Notes under the pieces: generated by a model | Databases searched by the model: none | Seen by the model: the letters and a program-made list of their open reading frames with translations, nothing else | What the model was told of the DNA's origin: nothing | Shown: piece by piece, positions 1,286 through 14,662 of the stretch | How the letters are laid out: each line of letters begins with the position of its first letter | How positions within the stretch are numbered: position 1 is the first letter of the stretch | Program-made: the position numbers and the translations under genes | Origin: a virus | Lineage: Duplodnaviria; Heunggongvirae; Uroviricota; Caudoviricetes | Reading direction: 5' to 3' (one strand) | Length of the DNA: 16,422 bases | Virus record (IMG/VR): IMGVR_UViG_2541047794_000004

Positions 1286-1500
1286 AACCGCAGCACGTTC
1301 TTGCTTAAGACGTGCTGCGGCATAATCCCAATGATTACTCCCTGACAGGGTTCGTAGGCCACTCAATATCAGGTGCAGTTGATGTATCAACACGGTTCAG
1401 CAACACCCGATACTTTTTCCAGGCTTCCAGCAATGAGGTTTCTTCCTCCGTTGCAATTTCCAGATCTGCAGCATCCTGAAGCGGCGCAATATGCTCACTG
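1286..1500. repeat. Direct repeat copy B: 3' end of tfa plus its 3' UTR hairpin
   Basis: See copy A; same orientation, roughly 90% identity over about 215 bp. Confidence 0.85.
1288..1320 (-). terminator. Hairpin downstream of tfa (perfect 11-bp stem ccgcagcacgt / acgtgctgcgg); possible bidirectional terminator between convergent tfa and the methyltransferase
   Basis: Perfect inverted repeat at 1288-1298 and 1310-1320. On the minus strand a T-run follows about 10 nt downstream (revcomp of gaaaaaatag), further than in a canonical intrinsic terminator, so function is uncertain. Confidence 0.45.
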
Positions 1501-1919
1501 GCTACCTGCATCAGGTTGTTTTTTGTTTCTTCCGCCTCCCGGATCCGGAACAGTTTTTCTGCTTCCGTATCCTTCACCCAGGCTGTGCCGTTCCACTTCT
1601 GAAACTCCCCTTCCGGCGATAACCAGGTAACATTTTCCGGTAACGGACCGAGTTCAGAAATAAATAACTCGTCCCCTGACGCTACGTCATAAACCGTTTT
1701 CCCCCGATGGTCTTCAACGAGATGCCACGATGCCTCATCACTGTTGAAAACAGCCACAAAGCCAGCAGGAATATCTGGTGGTGCAATATCGGTACTGTTT
1801 GCTGGCAGACCTGTATGAGGCGGAATATATGCGTCACCTTCACCAATAAATTCATTAGTTCCGGCCAGCAGATTATAAATTTTTATGGTCCGTGCTTGTT
1901 CACTCATTCTGAATGCCAT
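1335..1919 (-). CDS. tfa: Tail fiber assembly protein Tfa (194 aa)
   Basis: Translation [39 protein letters not shown]... matches my recollection of lambda Tfa (orf-194) along its length and has the same 194-aa size. ATG overlaps the stf stop (TAATG). Confidence 0.93.
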
Positions 1920-4900
1920 TATGCAAGCCTCACAATATAGTTAAATGCGATGTTTTTGACGGTGTTTTCCGCGTTACCCGCAGCGTTAACGGTGATGGTG
2001 TGTCCATGTGAACCAATCGCAACGGAGTGCGTATGCGCACCAATACCTACAGTATGTGCATGTGCGCCAGAACTTGCTGCAGTACCAGACAGCGAGTGGG
2101 TATGAGCACCTGCTGACTGTGTCTGAATACGTTGATAATACGATCTATAGGAAGAAGTCTCCGGGCTTACTTGATACTGTGAATTCTGGACATAAGTGAA
2201 CCCACCGCCATCATAAAATGCTAACGCAGAACCGCCGCCTCCTGGCCAACGAATACCATTACCATGAGTATGAACACCGGCAGACCCCGTAGAGCCACTC
2301 AGACTGTGCGTATGCGCCCCGGTGTTATTCGTGGATTTAGTGCCGTAATCAAACGACGATGTGGTTTTCGTCCCCAAATCCGTACTGGATGCGCTGGCGC
2401 TGTGGGTGTGCGATTTTATGCCGTCCTGTTCCTGAGACAATACGGCCCGGCCACTGGCGGGTTTGCCCTTAATCGTCCAGCCACGCATATCAGGGATCAC
2501 GCCTGACGGATAAGCCGCTGCAAGTTTCGGGTAGGCAGATTTGTTAAAAGTCTGCCCCTGCATCAGGGCATAACCAGACGGAACGGTATCTGATGGCCAC
2601 GGGATTGGTGCGCCAACTGGGTAGCTTTCTGGTGGAAGATTTTTCGAGGTATAAACTTCTGCCCAGTCTTCCTCAAAACCATAACCGTCTCTTGAAGAAC
2701 GGTAGAACAGACCACGATTTCTGTAATGCGCCTTCATCTGCAGGGTCCGGCAACTTCCGACTCCGGTATAGAAGTTAACCAGAATATAGCTGTCGCCAGA
2801 GCGGGCGACATTGTAAGCGCCTGATTCGGCATTCCAGGGAACGGCTCCATTCGAATCCGCATAAGCCCCCGTCGAACGTCGGGCAAATGCACCAATATTT
2901 TCCGGCGTGAGGTTAATATCCGCCGAGCCATCAAACTTAACACCGTTAATTTTTGGGGCTGCCGCAAGTTTCGTCGCGGTATCGGCGTTCCCCTTCAGTG
3001 CCCCGGTGATCCCATCAGTAACAGACAACGGACCTGAAATAGTCCCTCCAGTCGTTGGCAGCGCTCCAATATCTGATGGTGTAGGTTTCTGATGTGAGCT
3101 ATACATCGTATAAACAACACCACCGGTAACGCTGGAAGGCTTACTCGCTGAATATGTTGGCGAGGTATAAATAGAAACTGACGCATTTGCAGTACAATCC
3201 CAATGGATATTTACACTCGTCGCATAATTGCCAATCTCAACGTAAATATCATATGTATCGCCGGATGTGTTGATCCAGGCGAAATTCGTTAATCCGACGG
3301 CTGTACGCTTCCACAAAGCCCCGGTAATTCCTTTGGGGTTTCCATTGCCTGCTCGTAGAACCAGTTCTGAAATGCCTGCCTGATGTGGGGAACCGACGTT
3401 GTAACCAGCGCCACCAATCAATGCGATGTAAACGATGGAACTCGCTTGTGGCATGGTAACCGTTGCCAGTTTGAACCACCCAGCCCCGCCAGAGAAAGAG
3501 ATCGTTACTGAATTTAAAGTGCCAATATCTTTCGGTGTTAATGTTATATCCGCAGTCAGTGCTTTCCCGTTAACTTTTCGGTTAGATGGTACCCTGCCAT
3601 TCGCATTGTCATTCGCTGCTTTAACTGCCTTCGGTGTCGCGGCAAGCGTTTCAGATGTGATGTTGGTCGCACTGCTGAGCTGTACTATCCCCTTTTTCGT
3701 CGTACTTGCATCCTCAAGCGCCACGGCGGATGCAATATCCTCTGCCCGTTTTGCCGCTGTCTCGGCGCGCGTTGCCGCGGATTCCGCCGTACTTTTGCTC
3801 TGTGCTGCCGCCGTCGCACTGCCAGCTGCCTCTGTCGCCTTCGCGGATGCTGTCGTGGCGCTGCCCTTCGCTGCTGACGCCTGTCTGGTCGCCTCATCTT
3901 TTGAAGCAGACGCCGATGATGCCGATGACGCCGCCGAACTGGCGGACGATGCGGCAGCCGTTTTTGAGGATTCTGCGCTGGTCTCCGACGCTTTCGCGTT
4001 CGTCTCCGATGTCTTCGCTGCGGAAGCAGACCTCGCTGCTGCACTGGCCTGTTCAGTGGCTTCGCCAGCCTTCGTTGTGGCTGTTGAAGCGGACGATGCG
4101 GCGCTTTCTGCCGATTTTCCGGCGGCGCTAGCACTGGCTGAGGCCTGCCCGGCACTTGTTGACGCTGCACTGGCAGACGACGCAGCCGCTGTTTTTGAGC
4201 CTGCTGCTGCGGAGGCACTCTGTGCTGCTGCCGTTTCAGAGGACTTAGCGTTTGTCTCAGACGTCTTTGCCGCCTTCGCGGAATTTCCTGCCGCCGTTGC
4301 CGAGGAAGCGGCATTACTGGCGCTCGAGGCTGCGCTCGTTTCTGATAATTTTGCCGCCTCTTTTGAAGCCGACGCATCTCTGGCTGAGGTGGCTGCTTCT
4401 GACGCTTTCGTGGTCGCGGTGGATGCAGAAGTGGCAGCTGATTGTTGTGACGCTGCCGCATTCGTTTCTGACGTTTTCGCCGCACCGGCACTGGTGGCCG
4501 CCGCGCTTTTTGAGGACTCTGCAGCGGCAGCACTTTTTGATGCTTCAGTGGCCTTTGCTGATGCCGTTCCTGCGCTGGAAGACGCAGACTGAGCCGACGA
4601 AGCGGCCTGTCCGGCTGACGTGCTGGCTGCTCGTGCTGAGCCTGCAGCATCAGTCGCACGGGTTGCCGCCTCACGGGCTGATGTGCTGGCATCGCTGGCT
4701 GATTTCTTCGCGGCTGCCGTGTTCTGTGCCACCGCGGACGCGTTACGCGCCACCTCTTCCACCATCAGTTCAAAGCGGCGCAGTGCCTCAGGACGGGCAT
4801 CATCCTCCGTCATGGCACCGAGAAAATCATTCAGCGTACCGGGTCGGGAATCTTCATACACGGTGATGGTCCCGGCATGTGACGGCGGGAATCCTTCCAC

Positions 4901-5089
4901 CAACAGAATAACGCTGTACTGACCGTACTCAACGTCCATGCTGTAACGCCCGGCTTCATCCGGATTTTCTGAGGCCAGCGTGTTCACCACCACCGTGGTG
5001 CTGTTACGTTTTGCTTTCAGCTGGATTGTGCAGTTCTGTACCGGTTTTCCTGTGCCGTCTTTCAGTACACCTGAAATCTTTACTGCCAT
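1919..5089 (-). CDS. stf: Side tail fiber protein Stf, full length (about 1056 aa from ATG 5087-5089; track ORF starts at upstream GTG 5095)
   Basis: N-terminus [26 protein letters not shown]... and C-terminus ...[49 protein letters not shown] match lambda Stf as I recall it. Long Ala/Ser/Thr-rich repeat tract. [10 protein letters not shown] and [11 protein letters not shown] tail-fiber repeat motifs in the central part. Confidence 0.9.
3731..4744. repeat. Low-complexity Ala/Ser/Thr-rich imperfect tandem repeat tract inside stf
   Basis: Stf residues about 118-455 consist of recurring AKTSETNA(K/A)..., SASTATTKA(S/G)EA..., SAASSAS units. The same composition bias produces long spurious ORFs in the other frames (3435..4592 +, 3685..4692 -). 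Confidence 0.8.
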
Positions 5090-5100
5090 ATTCACCCCAC

Positions 5101-5127
5101 AAAAAAGCCCGCCTGAACCGGCGGGCT
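5101..5127 (-). terminator. Rho-independent terminator downstream of lom, just upstream of the stf start
   Basis: Stem gcccgcc (5108-5114) / ggcgggc (5121-5127) with a 6-nt loop; on the minus strand it is followed by a U6 tract (plus-strand A6 at 5102-5107). Confidence 0.7.
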
Positions 5128-5153
5128 GTCATAACACTGTGTTACCTGGCTAA

Positions 5154-5753
5154 TCAGAATTTATAACCGACACCAACGATGAAACTGTTGGTACGCCAGT
5201 CACCGCTGCCGGAGCCTTCATAAGCGACATCAACGGCCACGGATTCTGTCGGGTTAAACTGCACGCCAGCCCCCCACGCCAGAGACGTGTTGCTGTGGCG
5301 ACCGTCATCACTTCCGGTCAGCACATCGTGCGTTTTCCCCGTATTGTCGGTCACCTGCAGATAATCCCCGGAGAAAGTCGACACACGGCTGTAAGCCACA
5401 CCCGCCATCGCATACGCGCTGAACCATTCATTCACGCGCACAGACGGCCCCGCCATCACGCTGAACCAGCGGTTACGCACGGAATCTTCATGCCAGCGGG
5501 TATCGCTGTAATGCGTTTTTTGCTCATCTTCAGCGTTGGCATAACTGAATGACGTAATCAGCCCCAGCGTGTCCGTAAACTCATAACGGTATTTCACGTT
5601 AATCCCGTTCAGATTATCGCTGCCGGGAGCGTTCGTACGGGCATGAAGATACCCTGCGCTCAGTGTGGCCTGCTGCTCAGACGCCCATGCAGGCGCACCG
5701 GATACGGCCAGACAGATGGCTGCGGACAAAATGGCTGCACAAACTTTACGCAT
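5154..5753 (-). CDS. lom: Lom/Ail-family outer membrane beta-barrel protein (199 aa)
   Basis: N-terminal signal peptide [24 protein letters not shown]. Motifs [17 protein letters not shown] and the C-terminus [23 protein letters not shown] match lambda Lom as I recall it. Sits between J and stf as in lambda. GAGAGG RBS. Confidence 0.9.
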
Positions 5754-5777
5754 AATTACCTCTCGCTTTTCTGCAAT

Positions 5778-5801
5778 AAAAAAGGCACCATTTCTGGTGC
5801 C
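5778..5801 (-). terminator. Rho-independent terminator between J and lom
   Basis: Stem ggcacca (5784-5790) / tggtgcc (5795-5801) with a 4-nt loop; followed on the minus strand by a U6 tract (plus-strand A6 at 5778-5783). Confidence 0.65.
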
Positions 5802-5820
5802 CGTATCTGGGTTATAAAAT

Positions 5821-8800
5821 TCAGCTAATCGTGATGCCTGCAGTGGCTTTCTTCATCACCACAACCAGCAAATCGCTGATACTTGCTGTGGGATACCAGT
5901 TATTTACCAGCCATGCTGACACCGAAAACTCCAGTGTCATGTGACCGTGACCGGCAGGCATATCAATAACGCCACTGTAAATCAGCGTATTATCCAGCGC
6001 GGTACGGTTATAAATTTCAGCACCGTTTTTCCGCACTATCAGACGGCATGAGGAGTAAATATCAGTATGCTCTTTCTCATGTTTAGCGCCGCTGAATGCC
6101 ACCGCCGGAATAACAATCTGCCGGTCAAACGGCTGATCGTCATAAACCCTGACGGTAATGGTTCCTGATGGCCACCGCTCCGGTGCACGGGAGTCCCGGG
6201 GGAAAGCTTTGCCCACTGTTTTAACGAGATCGCCTTCAATCTGGTTCGCGGACAATTTTCCCAGAACCCGACAGTTCTCGTTAATCGTGACGTTGTTGAG
6301 CGTCCCGGAGTTCGCATTCACGTTACCGCTGATATCGGCATTTTTCGCCGTCAGCCGCCCGTCCGGTGTCAGGGAAAATGCCGGAGGATTACCGCCGCTG
6401 GTAATGGTGGGGGCCGTCAGGCGTTTCAGGAACACTTCATTCATGAATATCTGATCGCCCTGACCAACAAACATCGGCTTTGTGTTGCCATTCGCAGGAT
6501 TAATCATCGCAATCCTGTCTGCTGCCAGCAGCACCTGACTCTGCATGCCGTCAGGGGTGTTCTCAATACCGGCACCGATACCCGCAATATAAAGGCGTCC
6601 GTCCTGCATCTGCTGCAGCTTCACTGCCCACATGCTGTTCAGGTTATTATTTGTATCAACCTGAACCTTCTGTATCTGCTGGATCGCTGCACTCTGGTCT
6701 TCCAGTTTCTTATTGACGGTCTGTGTTATTTCATTGCTGACATCCGTTATGGACGTCCTGATTTCAGTCAGGTCAGGCGCAAGCTGACCGTTATCAATCT
6801 GCGTCCACAGCTCCTGAGCCAGATGGGTTTTCCCTATCTCGCCTTTGAAAAAATCCAGATAGCCTGATGCATCATCACTCGGCTGACCGACAGCCTCCAC
6901 GAATGCCGATTTGCCAACGGTGTTCACACTGCGAACGTAAAAATAATAATCATGGCCCGGTTTGATATTGATACTGGCGGCTATCCAGTACAGTGCCGTA
7001 CCAAGATAACGCGCGCTGGTTTCAACCTGCCTGATATCCGCAATCCGTTTTTCCGAGAACCAGAACTCAAACTGTACCGTCGGATCATAAACCGCAAGAT
7101 GCGGCGTGGCGGTTATCTGAAAATAGCCCGGCGTCAGCTCAATCCGCGACGGTGCTGCCGGTGCGGCAATCCGGAATGATACCGACGCCGGATCACCCTG
7201 CTGCCCCCAGGCATTTACCGCCCTGACTGTCAGCCTGTAGTTCCCCAGCGCCAGCTGCCTGAAGCGGTATGTGGTTTCCGTCGTCCGGGCCGTGCTGACC
7301 AGCCGCTCACTGCCGTCATCCGCTGTTACGGTCAGACGGAGCAGGAAGCTCACGCCCTTCACCACCTTCGGCGTGTCCCAGCGGGCCAGCACCTGATATT
7401 CCCCGCTGTCTGCGGTGACTTCGGCAGTCAGGTGCTGCACCGCTGGCGGCGTGACACCATTCACCGTGCCGCTCTGGTCGCCGTCAAAGTGCGCCCCGTT
7501 ATCCACGATGGCTTCTTTTTCCGGTACATGCTGCACGGCGGTGATGGCATACGTGCCGTCGTCGTTCTCACGGATACTCACGCAGCGGAACAGGCGCTGG
7601 CGCAGCGTCGGCAGCTTCAGCCCCCACACGCTGTATTCAGCAACGCCGTCAGGAACACGGCTCACTTTCACCTTCACGCCGTCGGTGACGGACTGGACCT
7701 CCACGCTGACCGGATTCCCCTGTCCGTCAACCAGGCTTATCAGCGTGGTGCCGGAGGATGGCAGCGTGATTTCACGGTCGAGCGTCAGTGTCCGCGTCTG
7801 GCTGTTCACCGCCAGCACGCGCCCGCCGATGCTGATACCCGCATAGTCATCATCACAGATTTCAATGACATCGCCCGGTACATGGCGAAGCCCTTCTGCA
7901 CCCACGCTGAAGTCCACGGTCTGCGTTTCCAGCAGCTCCGTTTTAATCAGCCACAGCCCGGCGCGGTGTGCCTGCCCCCGGCTGGTACAGCCAAAGGCAT
8001 CCATCTTCGTGACGTTACGACCGTAACGGAGAATGGCCTGCGTATCTTCAACAAGCTCTGTCGCCGTCTCCCAGCCGTTATTCGGGTCAATCCAGTTCAC
8101 CTCAACGGCATTATGGCGGTCCTTCAGGGCGCTGAAGCTGTAGCGGAACGGCGCGCCATCATCCGGCATCACCACATTACTGCGGTTATAGGTCCACACC
8201 TTATCCGACGGTCGGTCCTGCACGAACGTCAGCGTCTGCCCGTTCCATACCGGCATACAGCGCATCGCCGAGCAGAAATCACTGAGAACATCCCACGCCT
8301 TACGCTGTGTGGTCAGGTAGGCATTACAGGTGATGCGCGGCTCCGTGCCACCAAAGCCATCCGGCACTGACTGATCGCAATACTGGCCGATGACATACAG
8401 CGCCCATTTGTCCACATCCGCCGCACCAAGACGTTTCCCCATGCCGTAGCGCGGGTGGGTCAGCATATCCCACAGACACCAGGCCATGTTGTTGCTGTAT
8501 GCCGGTTTAAACGTCCCGTCCCAGATACCGTTGTATTGCCGCGTCTGCGGGTTATAGTTCGACGGCACCTGCAGAATGCGCCCGCGAAGATGATAATTAC
8601 GGCTCACCTGCTGGCTGCCGAACTGCTCCGAATCCACCTGCACGCCGACCAGTGCCGTGTTCGGGTAGCCCTGTTTCACATCGATGATTTCGGTGTATGA
8701 CGACCAGAGCGTTTTGTTCTGCAGCTGGTCTGTGGTGCTGTCCGGCGTCATCCTGCGCATCCGTATATTGAACGGGCGCGGCGGCAGGTTACCCACCACC

Positions 8801-9300
8801 ACCGAGGCCAGATACTGCGAGGTGGTTTTGCCCTTAATGGTGATGTCTTTTTCCGTCACCCAGCCACCATTACGTTGTATCTGAACCAGCAGGCGAACTT
8901 CCGACGGATTCCTGTCCCCCTTTGAGGTGGTTTCCACCAGTGCCTGCACACCGAAGGTAAAACGCAGTCGGTCAATGTTTGCCGACGTGATGGTCCGGGT
9001 GATCGGCGTGTCGTATTTCACTTCCGTACCCAGTACCGTCTCGGAACCTGATGATTCAAATCCCTCCGGCGGTGTCTGTTCCTGCTCACCTGCCCGGAAC
9101 ACCACCGTGACACCAGAGATGTTAGTATTCCCCTCACTGTCCAGCACCGGTGTACTGTTCAGCAGCACGCTTTTTAATCCATCCACCGGACCTTCAACCG
9201 GCCCTTCGCTGATGGCATCGATCACACTCAGCAGCTGCGTGGACTTCAGGTTGTCCCTCGCTTCGCGCGGGGTATGCCCCTTACTGCTTCCTTTACCCAT
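5821..9300 (-). CDS. J: Tail tip / host specificity protein J (1159 aa), central fibre and receptor-binding protein
   Basis: N-terminus [34 protein letters not shown]... and most of the length match lambda gpJ as I recall it; the last ~150 aa look divergent. GGAG 8 nt upstream of the ATG. Confidence 0.95.
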
Positions 9301-9311
9301 TCCTCACACTC

Positions 9312-9342
9312 CATAAACAACAAAGCCGCCCAAAAGGCGGCT
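9312..9342 (-). terminator. Rho-independent terminator after the lipoprotein moron, immediately upstream of the J start
   Basis: Stem agccgcc (9324-9330) / ggcggct (9336-9342) with loop caaaa; followed on the minus strand by a U-rich run (uuguuguuuau). Confidence 0.65.
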
Positions 9343-9366
9343 CATGAGTTACGGCAGGATTAACTA

Positions 9367-9705
9367 TTATTTACATGCATTAACACTATCAGCAAAAATT
9401 TTTGGCGTTAATGCTGGTACACGTTCATAAAGAGTAAAACTACTGCCATTTCCTGCTTTTTTGATATCAAGCACAACATCATATCCCCCCATAGCCTGTG
9501 GAACTAAAAGGCTTACCCCATTCTCAATAGGAAGGGATGTTATAGGTGTTCCATTACCAGCCCATTGTCTGGATATGCAGCCTGACAATTCATCAATATT
9601 TTTTAATGAATTACCTTCCATTACAGGTTTTCCGGATTTTACGTAATCCAAAGACTTACATCCTGTTAAGGCAATAATCGTGCAGAATAAAATCGTTTTG
9701 TTCAT
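9367..9705 (-). CDS. Predicted lipoprotein (about 112 aa) of unknown function; moron inserted between I and J
   Basis: Signal peptide with lipobox MNKTILFCTIIALTGC (L-T-G-C). Low GC. Promoter-like AT-rich upstream region and its own terminator. Track ORF begins at an upstream TTG (9717); ATG at 9703-9705 preferred. Confidence 0.6.
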   Translation of the reverse strand: MNKTILFCTIIALTGCKSLDYVKSGKPVMEGNSLKNIDELSGCISRQWAGNGTPITSLPIENGVSLLVPQAMGGYDVVLDIKKAGNGSSFTLYERVPALTPKIFADSVNACK

Positions 9706-9717
9706 ATAGCTAACCAA

Positions 9718-9777
9718 TAGAATAATTATCAGTGTTCGATATAAATATTAAATCAGTTAGAACATGAGTAAATAATA
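9718..9777 (-). promoter_or_regulatory. AT-rich intergenic region upstream of the lipoprotein gene; possible promoter (TGATAAT element around 9724-9731)
   Basis: About 60 bp of very AT-rich sequence between the I stop and the lipoprotein start, containing extended -10-like TGATAAT on the minus strand. No clear -35; weak prediction. Confidence 0.25.
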
Positions 9778-10419
9778 TTACCGCCCAATTACCACAACCT
9801 GACCACCATCCCCTTCATCTGCCGTGCTGATCTCCTGAGATGCCACACGTGACCCCACGCGCATTTCACCGTACAGAACAGGCAGGACATTGCCCTGGGC
9901 AACCATGTTATCCAGTGAGGAGAAATAGGTGTTCTGTTTGCCGTTATCCGTTGTCTGTGTACGGGGAGTTCTGGCTTTCGGTGCCAGCATCTGCGCCACA
10001 CCACCAAGCGTCATCGCCGCACCCATTGAAAAGAGAATGTCACTGAAAGCGATACTGATCCCCGGCATCCAGATTGCCGTAGCAATCAACGCCGCACCCA
10101 GCACCGCCTGAAACACACCGCCACTTTTTGCTCCCGCAAGACGCGGCACGATGTGGATCACGGCACCATTTGCCAGCGGCTCATTAAGACGGGATGATAA
10201 TTCGGTTTCTCCTGCATCCCGCCCGGCAATCCGTACCTGATACCAGCCATCGCTCAGTTTCTGACGAAACGCCGGGAGCTGTGTGGCCAGTGCCCGGATG
10301 GCTTCAGCCCCCGTTTTCACACGAAGGTCGATGCGGCGGCCAAATCGTTGCAAATCCCCGTAAAGGCAGATGCGTGCCATTCCCGGTGACGCCAGAGGGA
10401 GTGTGTGCGTCGCTGCCAT
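9778..10419 (-). CDS. I: Tail assembly protein I (213 aa)
   Basis: MAATHTLPLASPGMARICLYGDLQRFGRRIDLRVKTGAEAIRALATQLPAFRQKLSDGWYQVRIAGRD... and C-terminus ...EISTADEGDGGQVVVIGR match lambda gpI as I recall it. Overlaps the 3' end of K by about 100 nt. Confidence 0.9.
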   Translation of the reverse strand: MAATHTLPLASPGMARICLYGDLQRFGRRIDLRVKTGAEAIRALATQLPAFRQKLSDGWYQVRIAGRDAGETELSSRLNEPLANGAVIHIVPRLAGAKSGGVFQAVLGAALIATAIWMPGISIAFSDILFSMGAAMTLGGVAQMLAPKARTPRTQTTDNGKQNTYFSSLDNMVAQGNVLPVLYGEMRVGSRVASQEISTADEGDGGQVVVIGR

Positions 10420-11060
10420 TTGTCGGTATACCTCTCTCGTTTACTCAGTTGTTCAGGAATATGGTGCAGCAGCTCACCGTCGCCGCAGTAAATGGCGGCG
10501 TGATTCGGCACCGATGAACCAAAACAGCACAGCAGCACATCGCCCGGCTGCGCCTCTGTCAGTGCGACACGGTAAAAACCAGTAGCCTCCATATTGTCAA
10601 GATAGAGATTCTGACCGTGACGCCACCAGTCATCCCCGCGATGAAAATCCGGCATCTCAATCCCCGCCAGATGGTAAGCATCCCGGAACAGTGTGTAACA
10701 GTCCGTCACCCCGTACTCAAAGCGCCGCCCGGTGAGATGCGGCACACAGCGGAACTTGTGAATCGCCCCCCGGCAGACCAGCCACCACGGCAAATCGCTC
10801 TGCACCTGCAGCCGCCGGTCGGCCTCACTCAGCCAGGGCAGACCACCGGGGTGGCTGTGGACCAGCGCCACAATCTCACCCTGCATTTCTGCCTGCAGCC
10901 AGTCTTCCGGCGACATACGGAAATACGCCTCCGGCTCACCGGAGATATTCACGCAGGGAAAATATCTTTCCCCCTCCGGCGTTCTCACCACGAAGCCGCA
11001 CGACTCCGCTGGCGCGCATCGCCGGGCGTGCGCCAGAATCGCTGATTCTGTCTCTGTCAT
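10317..11060 (-). CDS. K: Tail assembly protein K (JAMM/MPN+ plus NlpC/P60-like domains), about 247 aa from ATG 11058-11060
   Basis: MTETESAILAHARRCAPAESCGFVV... matches the lambda gpK N-terminus. JAMM motif HSHPGGLPWLSEAD (HxHx7SxxD) and a Cys-containing DCYTLF segment are present. The ATG at 11060 lies 5 nt downstream of the L stop; the track ORF extends 14 codons further upstream and overlaps L. Confidence 0.88.
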   Translation of the reverse strand: MTETESAILAHARRCAPAESCGFVVRTPEGERYFPCVNISGEPEAYFRMSPEDWLQAEMQGEIVALVHSHPGGLPWLSEADRRLQVQSDLPWWLVCRGAIHKFRCVPHLTGRRFEYGVTDCYTLFRDAYHLAGIEMPDFHRGDDWWRHGQNLYLDNMEATGFYRVALTEAQPGDVLLCCFGSSVPNHAAIYCGDGELLHHIPEQLSKRERYTDKWQRRTHSLWRHREWHASAFTGICNDLAAASTFV

Positions 11061-11064
11061 GGGA

Positions 11065-11763
11065 TTACTGCGAAAGTTTGTTAATGGAAAGGAAGCCGCC
11101 AAAGTTGCCGACGTTATTGCGAAACTTACAGCCGCTCAGGCATTTGCTGCATTTATCCTTCGTGATATCGGACGTCGGCTGATCATATTCATCCGCGACC
11201 GCCGGACCGCTATAACCGCACTCATCGCCGCGATAGGTCCAGGTGCAGGTGTTGGCCAGCATGATACGTCCCGGAAAAACAGCGCCATCCGTTTCCGTCG
11301 GCGTGGACAGTACAAAAGAGGCACTGACTGCGCTCAGTTCGCTGCACTGCTCGATGCGCCAGCGGCTGATCACCTCCTGCTCCGGATCGGCGTCACGGTT
11401 TCCGTTGACGAAGTTCACCGCATCCAGAAAACGGGCGTAGACCTTACGCCGGACCACCGTTCCGCCGACCAGACTCTGCAGATCTTCCGCCATCCCGGTG
11501 ACCATACCGTACAGGTTAGAAACCGTCAGCGTGGGGCGCGTACTGGTGCCTTTGCCATTCAGTTCAAAACCACTCCCCTGAATGGGATACGGCTGATACT
11601 GTCGCCCCTGCCAGGTGACCGGCTCACCTTTTTCGTTCTGCTCATTACAGAAAAAATAACGTTCTCCACCGACCTCTGTCAGATCGATTTCCCAGAGCAC
11701 CACGCTGGCCGACTGCTCCGCACGGGTGCATTCATTCAGTGTTTCCTGTTGGATATCCTGCAT
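11065..11763 (-). CDS. L: Minor tail protein L (232 aa)
   Basis: MQDIQQETLNECTRAEQSASVVLWEIDLTEVGGERYFFCNEQNEKGEPVTWQGRQYQPYPIQGSGFELNGKG... matches lambda gpL. Start ATG overlaps the M stop (ATGA). Confidence 0.93.
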   Translation of the reverse strand: MQDIQQETLNECTRAEQSASVVLWEIDLTEVGGERYFFCNEQNEKGEPVTWQGRQYQPYPIQGSGFELNGKGTSTRPTLTVSNLYGMVTGMAEDLQSLVGGTVVRRKVYARFLDAVNFVNGNRDADPEQEVISRWRIEQCSELSAVSASFVLSTPTETDGAVFPGRIMLANTCTWTYRGDECGYSGPAVADEYDQPTSDITKDKCSKCLSGCKFRNNVGNFGGFLSINKLSQ

Positions 11764-12092
11764 CAGTTCACCACCTGTTCAAACTCTGCGCTGAACTCAA
11801 CACGCAGCATACTGACCCGCGACGACCATTTTGCGCAGGTCACCTTTATCTGCCGCCACTCATAAGGCGGCGTCCACAGAAAGGATTTCCAGCCCCCGTG
11901 CTCAGCCAGAAACGACTCAAGTGCCGTGGCCTCCTCGCGGGAGACAGAAAGCGTCACGCTGTACGTTTTCAGGTCAGCGTTCAGCCCGGCAGGCGCACGC
12001 TGGGAATAGCCATCACCAAAGCGCACCTTTCTTACGGAAGGGGCCGAAGCCACATCCATACCGGGTTTCACTTTCCAGCGGAAGGTCTTCAT
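11763..12092 (-). CDS. M: Minor tail protein M (109 aa)
   Basis: MKTFRWKVKPGMDVASAPSVRKVRFGDGYSQRAPAGLNADLKTYSVTLSVSREEATALESFLAEHGGWKSFLWTPP... matches lambda gpM. Start overlaps the H stop (ATGA). Confidence 0.93.
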   Translation of the reverse strand: MKTFRWKVKPGMDVASAPSVRKVRFGDGYSQRAPAGLNADLKTYSVTLSVSREEATALESFLAEHGGWKSFLWTPPYEWRQIKVTCAKWSSRVSMLRVEFSAEFEQVVN

Positions 12093-14662
12093 CGTCCACC
12101 TCCGGAGAACAGACCACCATCGCGCATCTGCCCGGTCACAACATCCATTGCCGCCTTACGGGCTACGTCATAAACAGCCTTCAGTGCCTGTGGCCCTATC
12201 TGACCGTTCGTGCCGTCGTTGTTAATCACCACATGGTTATTCTGCTCAAACGTCCCGGACGCCTGCGACCGGCTGTCCGCCATGCTGCCCTGTGTACCGA
12301 CATAACCGCCGGTGGCATAGCCGCGCATCAGCCGGTAGAGATTTCCCACGCCAATCCGGCTGGTTGCCTCCTTCGTGAAGACAAATTCACCACGGTGAAC
12401 AATCCCCGCTGGCTCATATTTGCCGCCGGTTCCCGTAAATCCTCCGGTTGCAAAATGGAATTTCGCCGCAGCGGCCTGAATGGCTGTACCGCCTGACGCG
12501 GATGCGCCGCCACCAACAGCCCCGCCAATGGCGCTGCCGATACTCCCGACAATCCCCACCATTGCCTGCTTAAGCAGAATTTCTGTCATCATGGACAGCA
12601 CGGAACGGGTGAAGCTGCGCCAGTTCTGTTCGCTGCCGGTCAGCATCGCCGCCATATTCTGTGCAATACCATCAAAGGTCTGCGTGGCCACACTTTTAAC
12701 CTGCGAAAAACTGTCCGTCGCACTTTCCGCCCACTCTCCCCAGCCGGACTTCATCCCGGCCATCCAGCTTCCACGAAGCTGCTCCTCCGCAGACCAGGTG
12801 TTCTTCAGTGCAGATGTGGCCTTCGCCAGCGCAGCCGGATTATCACCGTACACCTCACGAAGGCGCTGCTCTTCCGACTCCCGCTGCGCCTGACGGTCGG
12901 TGAGGCCGCGGGCTTTTGCGCTGATTGCCGCCTGCTTCGCGCTTTGCTGCTGTTCAAACCACGCCGCCTGCTGTGCCAGCTCATTCAGCCGCTTCTGGTG
13001 TTCAATCTTGTCTCCCAGCTCAGCCAGCTGGCGTTTGTACTCCAGCGTCTCTTTCTCATGAGCCAGCAGGGATTTTTCCTGCTCAGATAACTGCCGTTTC
13101 GTGGCGGCCTCTTTCAGGACCACATACTGATTTTCCGCTTTCCATAAATCACGGCGCTGCTGGCTGATTTTTTCATTCGCACCGCTGTGCTTCTCCAGCG
13201 TCCTGAGCTCAGTTTCAAGCGCCAGCAGGGCTGCATGCGCCTGGTCTTCCTGGCGCTCACCGGCAGACACCTTCACACCGGACGGCTTTTTCTGCGTCGA
13301 CTCATAATCCTTTTTTGCCGACGCCATCAGCGTGTTGTAATCCGCCTGCAGGATTTTCCCGTCTTTCAGGGCCTTATTCAGCTCTTCCTGCCGGGCGGTA
13401 TATTTCTCCAGTGGCGTCAGCAGGCGCTCATACGCCTTCTGCGCCTCTCCGGTATACTTCAGCTGTGACGACTCACGCTCAGCCCTGTCCCTTGCCGCCA
13501 GTTCACCGGCTTTTTCCATATCCGACTGCAGCGTTGCCGCTGCCAGACCCAGACGGGCATTTTCCCGGTCATCCCATGCGCCCTGAAGGTTGGCCCGGAA
13601 AGAGGAGGTTTTACCGCGGCGCTGGCTCCGACTCTGGTACCACTGCCATTTTTTGTCCGCCTCATCAAATGCCTTCTGTGCACTGGCGAGCATATCCGCT
13701 GAGGATTCCGGACGACCGATATCCAGAATGGCATCCCACATCGATTTGAATGCCTTCCCTGTTTTATCCGCCCAGGTCTCCAGTGTTCCCATGTTTTCTT
13801 TCAGGCGACGGGTCTGCTCATCAAAGCCTTTCGTGGCGATATCGTTCGCCGCCTGTAAGGCCCCGGCCTCGTCTCCGGAACGCTGCAGTTGTGCAACATA
13901 CGCAATCTGCTCTGCCGTCACGTTACGGAACTGGCGCGCCATCGCCATCAGTCCCGACGTCGGGTCAGTGGTCAGCTTCCCGAAGGCTTCAGCGACTTTA
14001 TCCACCTCCACACCGGATGCAGACGCAAAACGCGCGACACTCTGGTTAATGGCATCAAACTGTTCACCACCACGCACACCGGCATTCACCAGGGCTGCCA
14101 GTGACTCTCTCGCCTGGTTAAACGTCAGCCCTGCTGCCTGCCCGGCTCTTGAGAGCGTCAGCATACGATCGGCAGTCAGTCCGGCCTGATTGCCGGAAAG
14201 GACCAGCGTTTTATTAAATTCTGAAAGCGTGGCGTCGCCCTGGTACCAGGCGTACGCCAGCGCACCTGTCGCCACCACCAGCGAGGTGACCCCGACCATC
14301 GGCAGGGTGATCGCACCGGCAAGCCCCCTGAACATGGGGATCATCCCGCCGAAGGAGTCCTTCACCTGACCGCCCTGTTGCAGCAGGATCAACCAGGGAT
14401 TCTGACCACCGGCAAGCTGCGTGGCGATATCCGTAAACTGTGCGGGCAGGGTTCGCATGGCCGCTTTATACTGCCCGACGGAAATCCCGGCTTTTTGTGC
14501 AGCCAGCGCCTGGCGGCTCAGGCCCTGTTCAACAGCACTGGCGGTTTTTCTGGCGTCGGTATCCAGACCTGAAAAATGACGCCTTACCCGGCTCATCTGC
14601 TCATCGAAACGGACAGCATCCAGACTAAGGTCAATAACAAGATCACCAACCGGCTGGGACAT
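12089..14662 (-). CDS. H: Tail tape measure protein H (857 aa)
   Basis: MSQPVGDLVIDLSLDAVRFDEQMSRVRRHFSG... through ...TQMRDGGLFSGGGR matches lambda gpH (about 853 aa) along its length as I recall it. Position between G-T and M is as in lambda. Confidence 0.95.
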   Translation of the reverse strand: MSQPVGDLVIDLSLDAVRFDEQMSRVRRHFSGLDTDARKTASAVEQGLSRQALAAQKAGISVGQYKAAMRTLPAQFTDIATQLAGGQNPWLILLQQGGQVKDSFGGMIPMFRGLAGAITLPMVGVTSLVVATGALAYAWYQGDATLSEFNKTLVLSGNQAGLTADRMLTLSRAGQAAGLTFNQARESLAALVNAGVRGGEQFDAINQSVARFASASGVEVDKVAEAFGKLTTDPTSGLMAMARQFRNVTAEQIAYVAQLQRSGDEAGALQAANDIATKGFDEQTRRLKENMGTLETWADKTGKAFKSMWDAILDIGRPESSADMLASAQKAFDEADKKWQWYQSRSQRRGKTSSFRANLQGAWDDRENARLGLAAATLQSDMEKAGELAARDRAERESSQLKYTGEAQKAYERLLTPLEKYTARQEELNKALKDGKILQADYNTLMASAKKDYESTQKKPSGVKVSAGERQEDQAHAALLALETELRTLEKHSGANEKISQQRRDLWKAENQYVVLKEAATKRQLSEQEKSLLAHEKETLEYKRQLAELGDKIEHQKRLNELAQQAAWFEQQQSAKQAAISAKARGLTDRQAQRESEEQRLREVYGDNPAALAKATSALKNTWSAEEQLRGSWMAGMKSGWGEWAESATDSFSQVKSVATQTFDGIAQNMAAMLTGSEQNWRSFTRSVLSMMTEILLKQAMVGIVGSIGSAIGGAVGGGASASGGTAIQAAAAKFHFATGGFTGTGGKYEPAGIVHRGEFVFTKEATSRIGVGNLYRLMRGYATGGYVGTQGSMADSRSQASGTFEQNNHVVINNDGTNGQIGPQALKAVYDVARKAAMDVVTGQMRDGGLFSGGGR

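Follow-up and report, generated by a model that had tools for sequence, protein, structure and literature searches.

The IMG/VR virus record IMGVR_UViG_2541047794_000004 (Caudoviricetes) is a stretch of 16,422 nucleotides (nt), the whole of which we call the window. It carries a lambda-type tail module whose genes are all on the minus strand and keep the order of lambda, with an additional small gene for a lipoprotein between the tail genes I and J. An identical stretch is present in the chromosome of Escherichia coli AR_0017, beside trpA, yciF, yciE and a remnant of ompW. A preliminary description, made from the sequence alone, had taken the small gene for a lipoprotein moron and had proposed, as a hypothesis, that its product masks the receptor used by the phage. 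The features at the locus are the following:

9346-9777, no strand: the whole insert, 432 bp, its ends set by aligning the window to lambda DE3 and to an empty-site prophage; it stands in place of about 16 nt of the ancestral I-J spacer
9778-10419, minus strand: gene I, tail-tip plug protein, upstream neighbour of the insert (Pfam Lambda_tail_I, E 4e-24; RefSeq start at about 10353)
9706-9777, minus strand: AT-rich leader of 72 nt, from the stop codon of I to the lipoprotein start, read from the sequence
9705-9367, minus strand: lipoprotein gene, 112 codons plus stop (open reading frame and translation; full-length match to PHROG 914)
9658-9705, minus strand: signal peptide and lipobox, MNKTILFCTIIALTG followed by Cys, read from the sequence
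9323-9343, minus strand: terminator-like hairpin with a T-rich tail, just upstream of the J ribosome-binding site (scan; -16.7 kcal/mol, z -4.0)
9300-5821, minus strand: gene J (1159 amino acids, aa), the downstream neighbour, coding for the receptor-binding central tail fibre

The insert between I and J

In lambda (the DE3 prophage of E. coli BL21) J follows I directly, as the preliminary description had stated, with a spacer of 60 nt. We have searched 5,426 complete E. coli genomes with a query of 1,077 nt that comprised the end of I, the open reading frame (ORF) and the start of J. This identified 8,739 I-J junctions in 4,318 genomes, and the insert was covered in only 334 genomes; about 96% of the junctions lack it and have a distance of about 60 nt between I and J, as in DE3. 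The ORF region alone was found in 337 genomes, at 349 places, always with a nucleotide identity of 95-100%. The low GC content described for the insert is real as well, since the lipoprotein gene has a value of 0.37 against 0.57 in its flanks, and windows of 200 nt across positions 9300-9800 range from 0.30 to 0.41 compared with 0.55-0.60 outside. The lipoprotein gene is an insertion relative to lambda and a horizontally acquired accessory gene. It can be called a moron in the sense used for HK97, and it has two of the features that Juhala et al. (2000) gave for morons, as an extra gene between otherwise adjacent genes and with a base composition unlike that of its neighbours. The alignments give an insert shorter than the roughly 480 bp estimated at first (432 bp).

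The leader had been called promoter-like. It is AT-rich, but the promoter scan detected no sigma-70-like site on the coding strand at its threshold, and the best candidate found by eye (TTTACT-16-TAATAT) matches 8 of 12 positions. A promoter in this leader is possible. No clear Shine-Dalgarno sequence could be read before the lipoprotein start.

The strong hairpin before the ribosome-binding site of J had been considered the terminator of the lipoprotein gene itself. The hairpin is there, but it is not the gene's own: a homologous one, AACCGCCTGCGGGCGGTT (AACCGCC-TGCG-GGCGGTT), is located at the same spot in lambda and in empty-site prophages, and that of the window (AGCCGCC...GGCGGCT) differs from it by one compensatory change of an A-T to a G-C pair. 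Since it already existed in the lambda I-J spacer, the hairpin is ancestral to the site and was not brought by the insert. It nevertheless stands in a good position to end a transcript begun upstream of the lipoprotein gene. The conservation of this structure in lambda (L075, approximately 601-625, DE3), in the empty-site prophages and, with the compensatory change, in the window gives it the look of an element selected within the late operon of lambda itself.

A lipoprotein of the PHROG 914 family

The ORF at 9705-9367 translates into MNKTILFCTIIALTGCKSLDYVKSGKPVMEGNSLKNIDELSGCISRQWAGNGTPITSLPIENGVSLLVPQAMGGYDVVLDIKKAGNGSSFTLYERVPALTPKIFADSVNACK. Its N terminus, MNKTILFCTIIALTGC followed by KS, has the pattern MNK-TILFCTIIA-LTG-C16, with a charged n-region (Lys3), a hydrophobic core of 10 residues and a lipobox L-T-G-C that agrees with the consensus [LVI][ASTVI][GAS]C, the Cys falling in the usual range of about 15-35. 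The residue at +2 after the lipidated Cys is Lys and not Asp, the signal for inner-membrane retention. Judged by these features, the product is predicted to be a lipoprotein with outer-membrane sorting (Lol) signals. The mature part has 97 residues, with a computed mass of about 10.3 kDa and an isoelectric point of 7.9. The count of three Cys given previously has to be corrected to four, one in the signal peptide (C8) and three in the mature part (C16, C43 and C111).

The version of this protein in RefSeq, produced by the Prokaryotic Genome Annotation Pipeline (PGAP), is a hypothetical protein of 84 aa (WP_001300316.1; window 9367-9621, L001 12067-12321) that starts at the internal Met29, so that the signal peptide and the lipobox are missing from the annotation. 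Among the sequence clusters, an 85-aa form (P0003) represents 134 sequences and the 112-aa form (P0001) 155. Homologs from Kluyvera, Klebsiella, Enterobacter and Jejubacter, 48-62% identical to the window protein, preserve the N-terminal signal, the lipobox and the CKSLDYV(R/K)S motif downstream, and because the N terminus is conserved in this way the true start is the ATG at 9705 and not Met29. Some copies are frameshifted (L060-L062, P0002 and P0018), which indicates that the gene can be lost.

The window protein matches PHROG 914, a family annotated as 'unknown function', with an E value of 7.3e-33, residues 1-112 aligning with positions 1-118 of the 118-position profile. Among 1.84 billion cluster representatives searched with a profile, 125 relatives were retrieved at E <=1e-3, nearly all of 105-125 aa. 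Of 132 family proteins with lengths of 95-200 aa, 128 possess the lipobox, and the +2 residue is A, S, K, T, V or others but never D. In an alignment of 53 sequences, the most divergent of which share 16% identity with the window protein, only Cys16, Cys43 and Cys111 are invariant, while Pro27, Lys35, Trp48 and Gly63 are nearly so. These data bear out the initial identification of a 112-aa lipoprotein with an LTGC lipobox and show the gene to be real. The presence of two conserved Cys in the periplasmic domain suggests that Cys43 and Cys111 probably form a disulfide there. The hosts of the family include E. coli (6% of the complete genomes), Klebsiella, Kluyvera, Enterobacter, Pseudomonas and Burkholderia.

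Other searches gave little more. No Pfam family, including Lambda_Bor, matched the window protein at E <=1, nor did any of the anti-phage defence profiles of PADLOC-DB at the same threshold, and the only NCBIfam hit was VirB7 (E 0.08), restricted to the signal peptide. Matches of the family profile to the sequences of the PDB were likewise limited to the signal peptide. Of 50,697 phage records searched by megablast and tblastn, none matched the lipoprotein below E 1e-5; two weak phage matches, Fraca (31% identity) and LMessi (29%), were confirmed as family members by the profile. When genomes representing the different species were scanned, the only locus recovered was one in Kluyvera. We also considered membership in DUF6491, but the matches were weak, appeared in 7 of the 53 members (best E 0.007) and were judged insufficient. 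Roles as a spanin, as a lysozyme inhibitor of the MliC/Ivy type or as an immunity protein for the NlpC/P60 peptidase of gpK were dropped, no match supporting any of them. Our search of the literature found nothing on phrog_914, on WP_001300316 or on a lipoprotein between or with the tail genes K, I and J.

The AlphaFold (AF2) model of the protein is confident (pLDDT 83.6, pTM 0.75) and predicts, after the tether, a short helix, a strand, a long helix (residues 37-50, with Cys43), a four-strand antiparallel sheet and a C-terminal helix that reaches Cys111. According to this model, the protein beyond the tether is probably a small alpha+beta domain facing the periplasm. Fold searches recovered generic alpha+beta domains, with sequence identities of 4-13%. 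Among solved structures, the nearest in fold is Flpp3 of Francisella (DUF3568), whose PDB entries are titled DUF3568 family protein and 'F. tularensis virulence determinant'; DUF302 proteins and the N-terminal domain of BamC are further matches, and the sequence identities to these three are 6-13%. The Pfam families of Flpp3, DUF302 and BamC are matched by none of the 53 family members, and since this fold is common to many unrelated proteins it implies no function. The one significant viral fold match, an unannotated protein of the Pseudomonas phage phiAH14a, is a true family member. None of the sources consulted gave a member of the family a functional name. PHROG 914 is a widespread, mostly phage-borne and unnamed lipoprotein family, and the window protein is an uncharacterised new member of the phage outer-membrane lipoprotein morons.

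Genomic contexts of the relatives and the type of J

The usual position of the family is immediately upstream of the tail-tip gene I, in the order K-lipoprotein-I-J, of which the I-lipoprotein-J order of the window is a variant. The adjacency to I recurs in members that are only 21-54% identical. The contexts found were as follows:

K-lipoprotein-I: Kluyvera and other enterobacterial prophages (L003, L064, L072 and L073)
K-lipoprotein-I: coliphage Fraca
K-lipoprotein-I: Klebsiella phage ST846-OXA48phi9.1
K-lipoprotein-I: metagenomic prophage with P0027, in which the ORF at the position of I has no Pfam match
K-lipoprotein-I, probably: P0030 and P0021, lipoprotein-I being seen for P0021
Lipoprotein-H: L065-L070, directly upstream of the tape-measure gene
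Distant member: Burkholderia gladioli prophage, beside a cI-like repressor and co-oriented with it
Distant member: phage replication module
Distant member: genomic island
Distant member: L083 6001-6339 (CP001560.1, GCA_000262305.1), apparently non-prophage chromosome, between a yidB-like gene and the ecotin gene

In four prophages with P0022, 4-5 kb of variable cargo follow K, and the lipoprotein gene still lies 60 nt upstream of I. The cargo of these prophages (L078-L081, approximately 3400-8000) includes Arc-like repressors, antirepressors of the Bro-N, KilA-N and ANT kinds, SocA_Panacea and a protein with an FtsK_gamma domain, and resembles an immI-like region plus a defence hotspot inside the tail operon. 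A position beside a cI-like repressor, as in the B. gladioli prophage, is typical of genes expressed in the lysogen. The chromosomal member in CP001560.1 is 38% identical to the window protein, lies near copC, copD and yebY and has a GC content (0.62) like that of its flanks (0.58). The prophage homologs, in turn, are AT-richer than their surroundings (GC 0.38-0.45 vs 0.44-0.56).

Phage phiAH14a has its family member, p33, in the early, repressor-side region of the genome. The true start of p33 lies upstream of the annotated one and restores the signal, MRIAALGLAVALLSGC. It is followed by a paralog of I (p32), 79% identical to the I of the tail module (p84). The tail module of the same phage has, between K and I (p84), an unrelated lipoprotein of 140 aa (p83) that shares with the family only the signal and the tether CASxxxVRDAKPV. 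There are thus two lipoprotein-plus-I pairs in this phage (L076 6940-7948 and L099 23548-25310), and the C-terminal halves of the two I proteins are near-identical.

Where the order is K-lipoprotein-I, no more than about 40 nt separate the lipoprotein gene from K, and this spacer has a strong Shine-Dalgarno sequence, a layout suggesting that these genes are probably co-transcribed with the late tail genes. An apparent conservation of the leader between the window and these homologs was rejected, since what is conserved in the homologs turned out to be the 3' end of K; the residual similarity in the alignment consists of short stretches only. Downstream of the gene, most prophage contexts show a hairpin and T run that abut the ribosome-binding site of the next gene. 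This 3' junction is alike across contexts (window 9300-9345; L078 8361-8403; L065 10360-10398; L002 7355-7392), with a GC hairpin, a T run, (T)GGAG, about 8 nt and the ATG of J, I or H. It could be a recombination joint of tail cassettes or just a frequent layout of terminator plus ribosome-binding site.

The preliminary description had suggested examining whether the lipoprotein co-varies with the C-terminal domain of J, as would be expected if it masked the receptor matched to that J. We have used for this purpose the 70 IMG/VR loci with the lipoprotein, from which 36 downstream J proteins longer than 1,050 aa could be compared. At every E. coli locus holding both neighbours the order is I-lipoprotein-J and the lipoprotein is 98-100% identical. 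Residues 1-800 of the J proteins are 92-100% identical to the J of the window. The C-terminal region, residues 1000-1159, falls into these types by identity to the window J:

90-100% (window type): J of 1159 and 1131 aa; a cut-off ORF of 1120 aa (L011) matches as far as it reaches
62-65%: J of 1132 and 1160 aa
41-50%: J of 1137 aa
0-11%: J of 1084 aa

One lipoprotein type (98-100% identical) is therefore located upstream of at least four C-terminal types of J. In the opposite direction, the J C terminus of the window, at >=95% nucleotide identity, is present in at least 2,157 E. coli genomes, whereas the lipoprotein is in 337. VT1-Sakai, PPompW prophages and vB_EcoS-783R2 have this C terminus with 99% identity. 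Phages such as VT1-Sakai lack the lipoprotein gene; no record of the phage collection matched the lipoprotein below E 1e-5, the only weak matches being Fraca and LMessi. The co-variation fails in both directions: the lipoprotein neither requires nor predicts the receptor-binding type of J and is independent of it, which leaves the masking of a receptor matched to its own J unsupported. The refuting outcome named in the preliminary description is half borne out, as the gene occurs whatever the type of J but is not present uniformly and does not code for a structural tail protein.

Enterohaemorrhagic E. coli (EHEC) prophages with the window-type J C terminus contain at the I-J site a different, unannotated insert of 240-340 nt (L097 1716-2057, PPompW_EH2246; L098 4702-4941, VT1-Sakai). 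It has no convincing ORF and two strong hairpins, one of them terminator-like, and might be a small RNA or the remnant of another moron. Rfam recognised no known RNA in the I-J region of either the window or the EHEC phages.

The remaining genes of the module in the window are these:

12089-14662, minus strand: H, tail gene in lambda order (ORFs and annotation, as for the three below)
11763-12092, minus strand: M, tail gene in lambda order
11065-11763, minus strand: L, tail gene in lambda order
10317-11102, minus strand: K, tail gene in lambda order
5154-5753, minus strand: lom (annotation)
1919-5095, minus strand: stf (annotation)
1335-1919, minus strand: tfa, tail fibre assembly (annotation)

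Downstream of tfa and on the opposite strand (612-1280, plus) there is a cargo gene for a class I S-adenosylmethionine (SAM)-dependent methyltransferase, which in the annotation of L001 lies beside pseudogene fragments of tfa and DUF4376, where the prophage ends. Within tfa, positions 1378-1576 of the minus strand are a full-length Rfam match to IS009 (RF02111; 225 bits, E 2e-55). Some IMG/VR contigs, such as L037 (IMGVR_UViG_2695420744_000007) and L007, contain two to three consecutive partial tail modules (H-M-L-K-I-J repeats) with the lipoprotein in one module only, and could be tandem prophage remnants or assembly chimeras.

Possible role and comparison with known systems

We tentatively propose that the lipoprotein is an exclusion or protection factor that acts at the envelope independently of the type of J and that may interfere with the step performed by gpI or by the tape-measure protein; to the general and the specific form of this reading together we would give a probability of about 40%. 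The lipoprotein would be made during late transcription, with the Q-modified polymerase reading through the hairpins, and perhaps also in the lysogen, where a weak promoter within the AT-rich leader could drive it. It would act at the envelope of the lysogen or of the late-infected cell. Since the lipoprotein tracks I and not the C terminus of J, its likeliest target would be a step common to lambda-like tail tips and not the phage-binding surface of the receptor. Candidate steps would be that at which the plug helices of gpI enter the outer membrane or that at which the tape-measure protein exits into the periplasm. The product of I is a virion protein, three copies of which plug the tail tip and are bound to the C terminus of the tape measure, as seen by cryo-electron microscopy (PMC11101478, PMC12617516). 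On binding to LamB the plug drops toward the outer membrane of the host, where two hydrophobic helices have been proposed to insert (PMC11101478), and gpH* then forms a periplasmic channel (PMC12617516). Located at the outer membrane on its periplasmic side, and with its gene kept beside I or the tape-measure gene, a lipoprotein would be well placed to interfere with such a receptor-independent step. That PHROG 914 as a whole constitutes a new class of superinfection exclusion without receptor masking, blocking the insertion of the gpI plug or the exit of the tape-measure channel from the periplasmic face, is in our opinion unlikely.

Several observations weigh against the proposed role. Its main weakness is that the adjacency to I may reflect only a permissive hotspot and tight linkage, the K-I and I-J junctions also holding unrelated cargo. 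Some members are located outside phage tail modules, including the chromosomal copy in CP001560.1, and the activity of the family therefore need not concern phages. We found no annotation or experiment that gives any family member a function, and expression in the lysogen has to contend with a leader in which the promoter scan detected nothing at its threshold.

Receptor masking, in which the lipoprotein would bind from the periplasm the outer-membrane protein used by J, block superinfection and spare the progeny from adsorbing to debris, looks attractive at first sight. The lipoprotein, with its outer-membrane sorting signals, is encoded inside the host-range region at a distance of 66 nt upstream from J, and there are experimental precedents in Llp (PMC9586334) and in Lpp010 and Lpp021 (PMC11893012). 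The receptor-binding end of J is, however, 3.3 kb away from the lipoprotein ORF, the constant neighbour is I, and neither direction of the comparison with the J C terminus gave any co-variation. Fraca carries a family member between K and I and, in addition, a cor gene downstream of J; the coexistence of both lipoproteins argues against the same job for them. The members found outside tail modules also count against masking, as does a sequence and fold unrelated to those of Llp, Cor and the Lpp proteins, and we consider masking improbable. We are similarly doubtful about a lysogenic conversion unrelated to phage entry, by which an envelope lipoprotein riding in a permissive junction would change the fitness of the host (serum or stress resistance, in the manner of Bor). 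The Flpp3 fold, the chromosomal homolog beside ecotin and copper-resistance genes, the member in a genomic island and the unrelated cargo at the I-J and K-I junctions of other prophages would all fit. The long-kept adjacency to I across very diverged members would be unexpected for a generic fitness gene, and there is no Pfam match to Bor.

That the ORF is a non-functional or decaying remnant carried along by recombination might be suspected from its truncation to 84 aa in RefSeq, the weak Shine-Dalgarno sequence, the lack of a detected promoter and the frameshifted copies. The near identity of the copies in 337 genomes (95-100% at the nucleotide level), the preservation of length, lipobox and the three Cys in homologs only 21-54% identical and the confident predicted fold make this highly improbable.

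Of the ways in which siphophages bar entry behind them, phage-encoded outer-membrane lipoproteins are understood best, yet few families of them have been studied (Cor, Llp and the mEp Lpp proteins). The gene described here is common, being present in 6% of the complete E. coli genomes, yet it belongs to no Pfam family and its signal peptide is missing from RefSeq. That it is steadily linked to I, and not to the end of J that binds the receptor, points to a step after adsorption, which cryo-electron microscopy has lately started to describe. If the lipoprotein does exclude phages, it would influence which hosts lambda-like phages, therapeutic as well as temperate, can infect regardless of the receptor, and there would be a genetic handle on the crossing of the outer membrane by gpI and the tape measure. 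A block at the gpI or tape-measure step would mean a receptor-independent cross-exclusion of lambda-type siphophages, and would account both for the long-kept adjacency to I and for the I paralog that travels along in phiAH14a. Should it have no effect on phages, it would be one more uncharacterised lipoprotein of lysogenic conversion.

The closest known systems are Cor (of phi80, N15, HK022 and T1) and the Llp of T5, which like the window protein are small phage lipoproteins with outer-membrane sorting signals encoded in the tail or host-range region. They are shorter (60-80 aa vs 112 aa), and their genes lie downstream of J in the case of Cor and beside the receptor-binding protein gene in that of Llp, whereas the PHROG 914 genes lie beside I. 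Both are exclusion factors that block FhuA from the periplasmic side, the precedent of Llp being experimental (PMC9586334). Against the family profile, the Cor of Fraca scored 9.0 bits, over the signal peptide only, and the Llp chain (PDB 8a60_B) aligned over residues 1-19 only (E 0.95); neither protein was among the fold matches of the window protein.

Similarly, Lpp010 and Lpp021 of the mEpimmI coliphages are lipoproteins encoded inside the structural gene cluster of coliphages with lambda-type tails, and their expression excludes phages that have LamB or OmpA as receptor (PMC11893012). As extracted from the mEp010 and mEp021 genomes they have 82 and 72 aa and, unlike the window gene, lie on the opposite strand downstream of J. 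They scored 6-10 bits against the family profile, compared with 67-76 bits for the members from Fraca, phiAH14a and Klebsiella ST846. With Cor, Lpp010 and Lpp021 below 10 bits and the members at 67-76, PHROG 914 is a separate family. Tail-module lipoproteins of other families have thus been shown experimentally to exclude phages (PMC11893012, PMC9586334).

The Bor protein of lambda, the classic lambda moron, is also a prophage outer-membrane lipoprotein of about 100 aa, but its gene is located in the lysis region and not among the tail genes, and the window protein has no Lambda_Bor match. Altogether, the profile scores, the Pfam searches and the fold lists agree with the first impression that the window protein is not Cor, Llp or Bor. 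A last parallel is gp15 of HK97, reportedly a moron among the tail genes, beside the tape-measure gene, that blocks the entry of DNA of its own kind and not adsorption. It is said to be an inner-membrane protein and not a lipoprotein, and its position beside the tape-measure gene resembles that of the family members in L065-L070.

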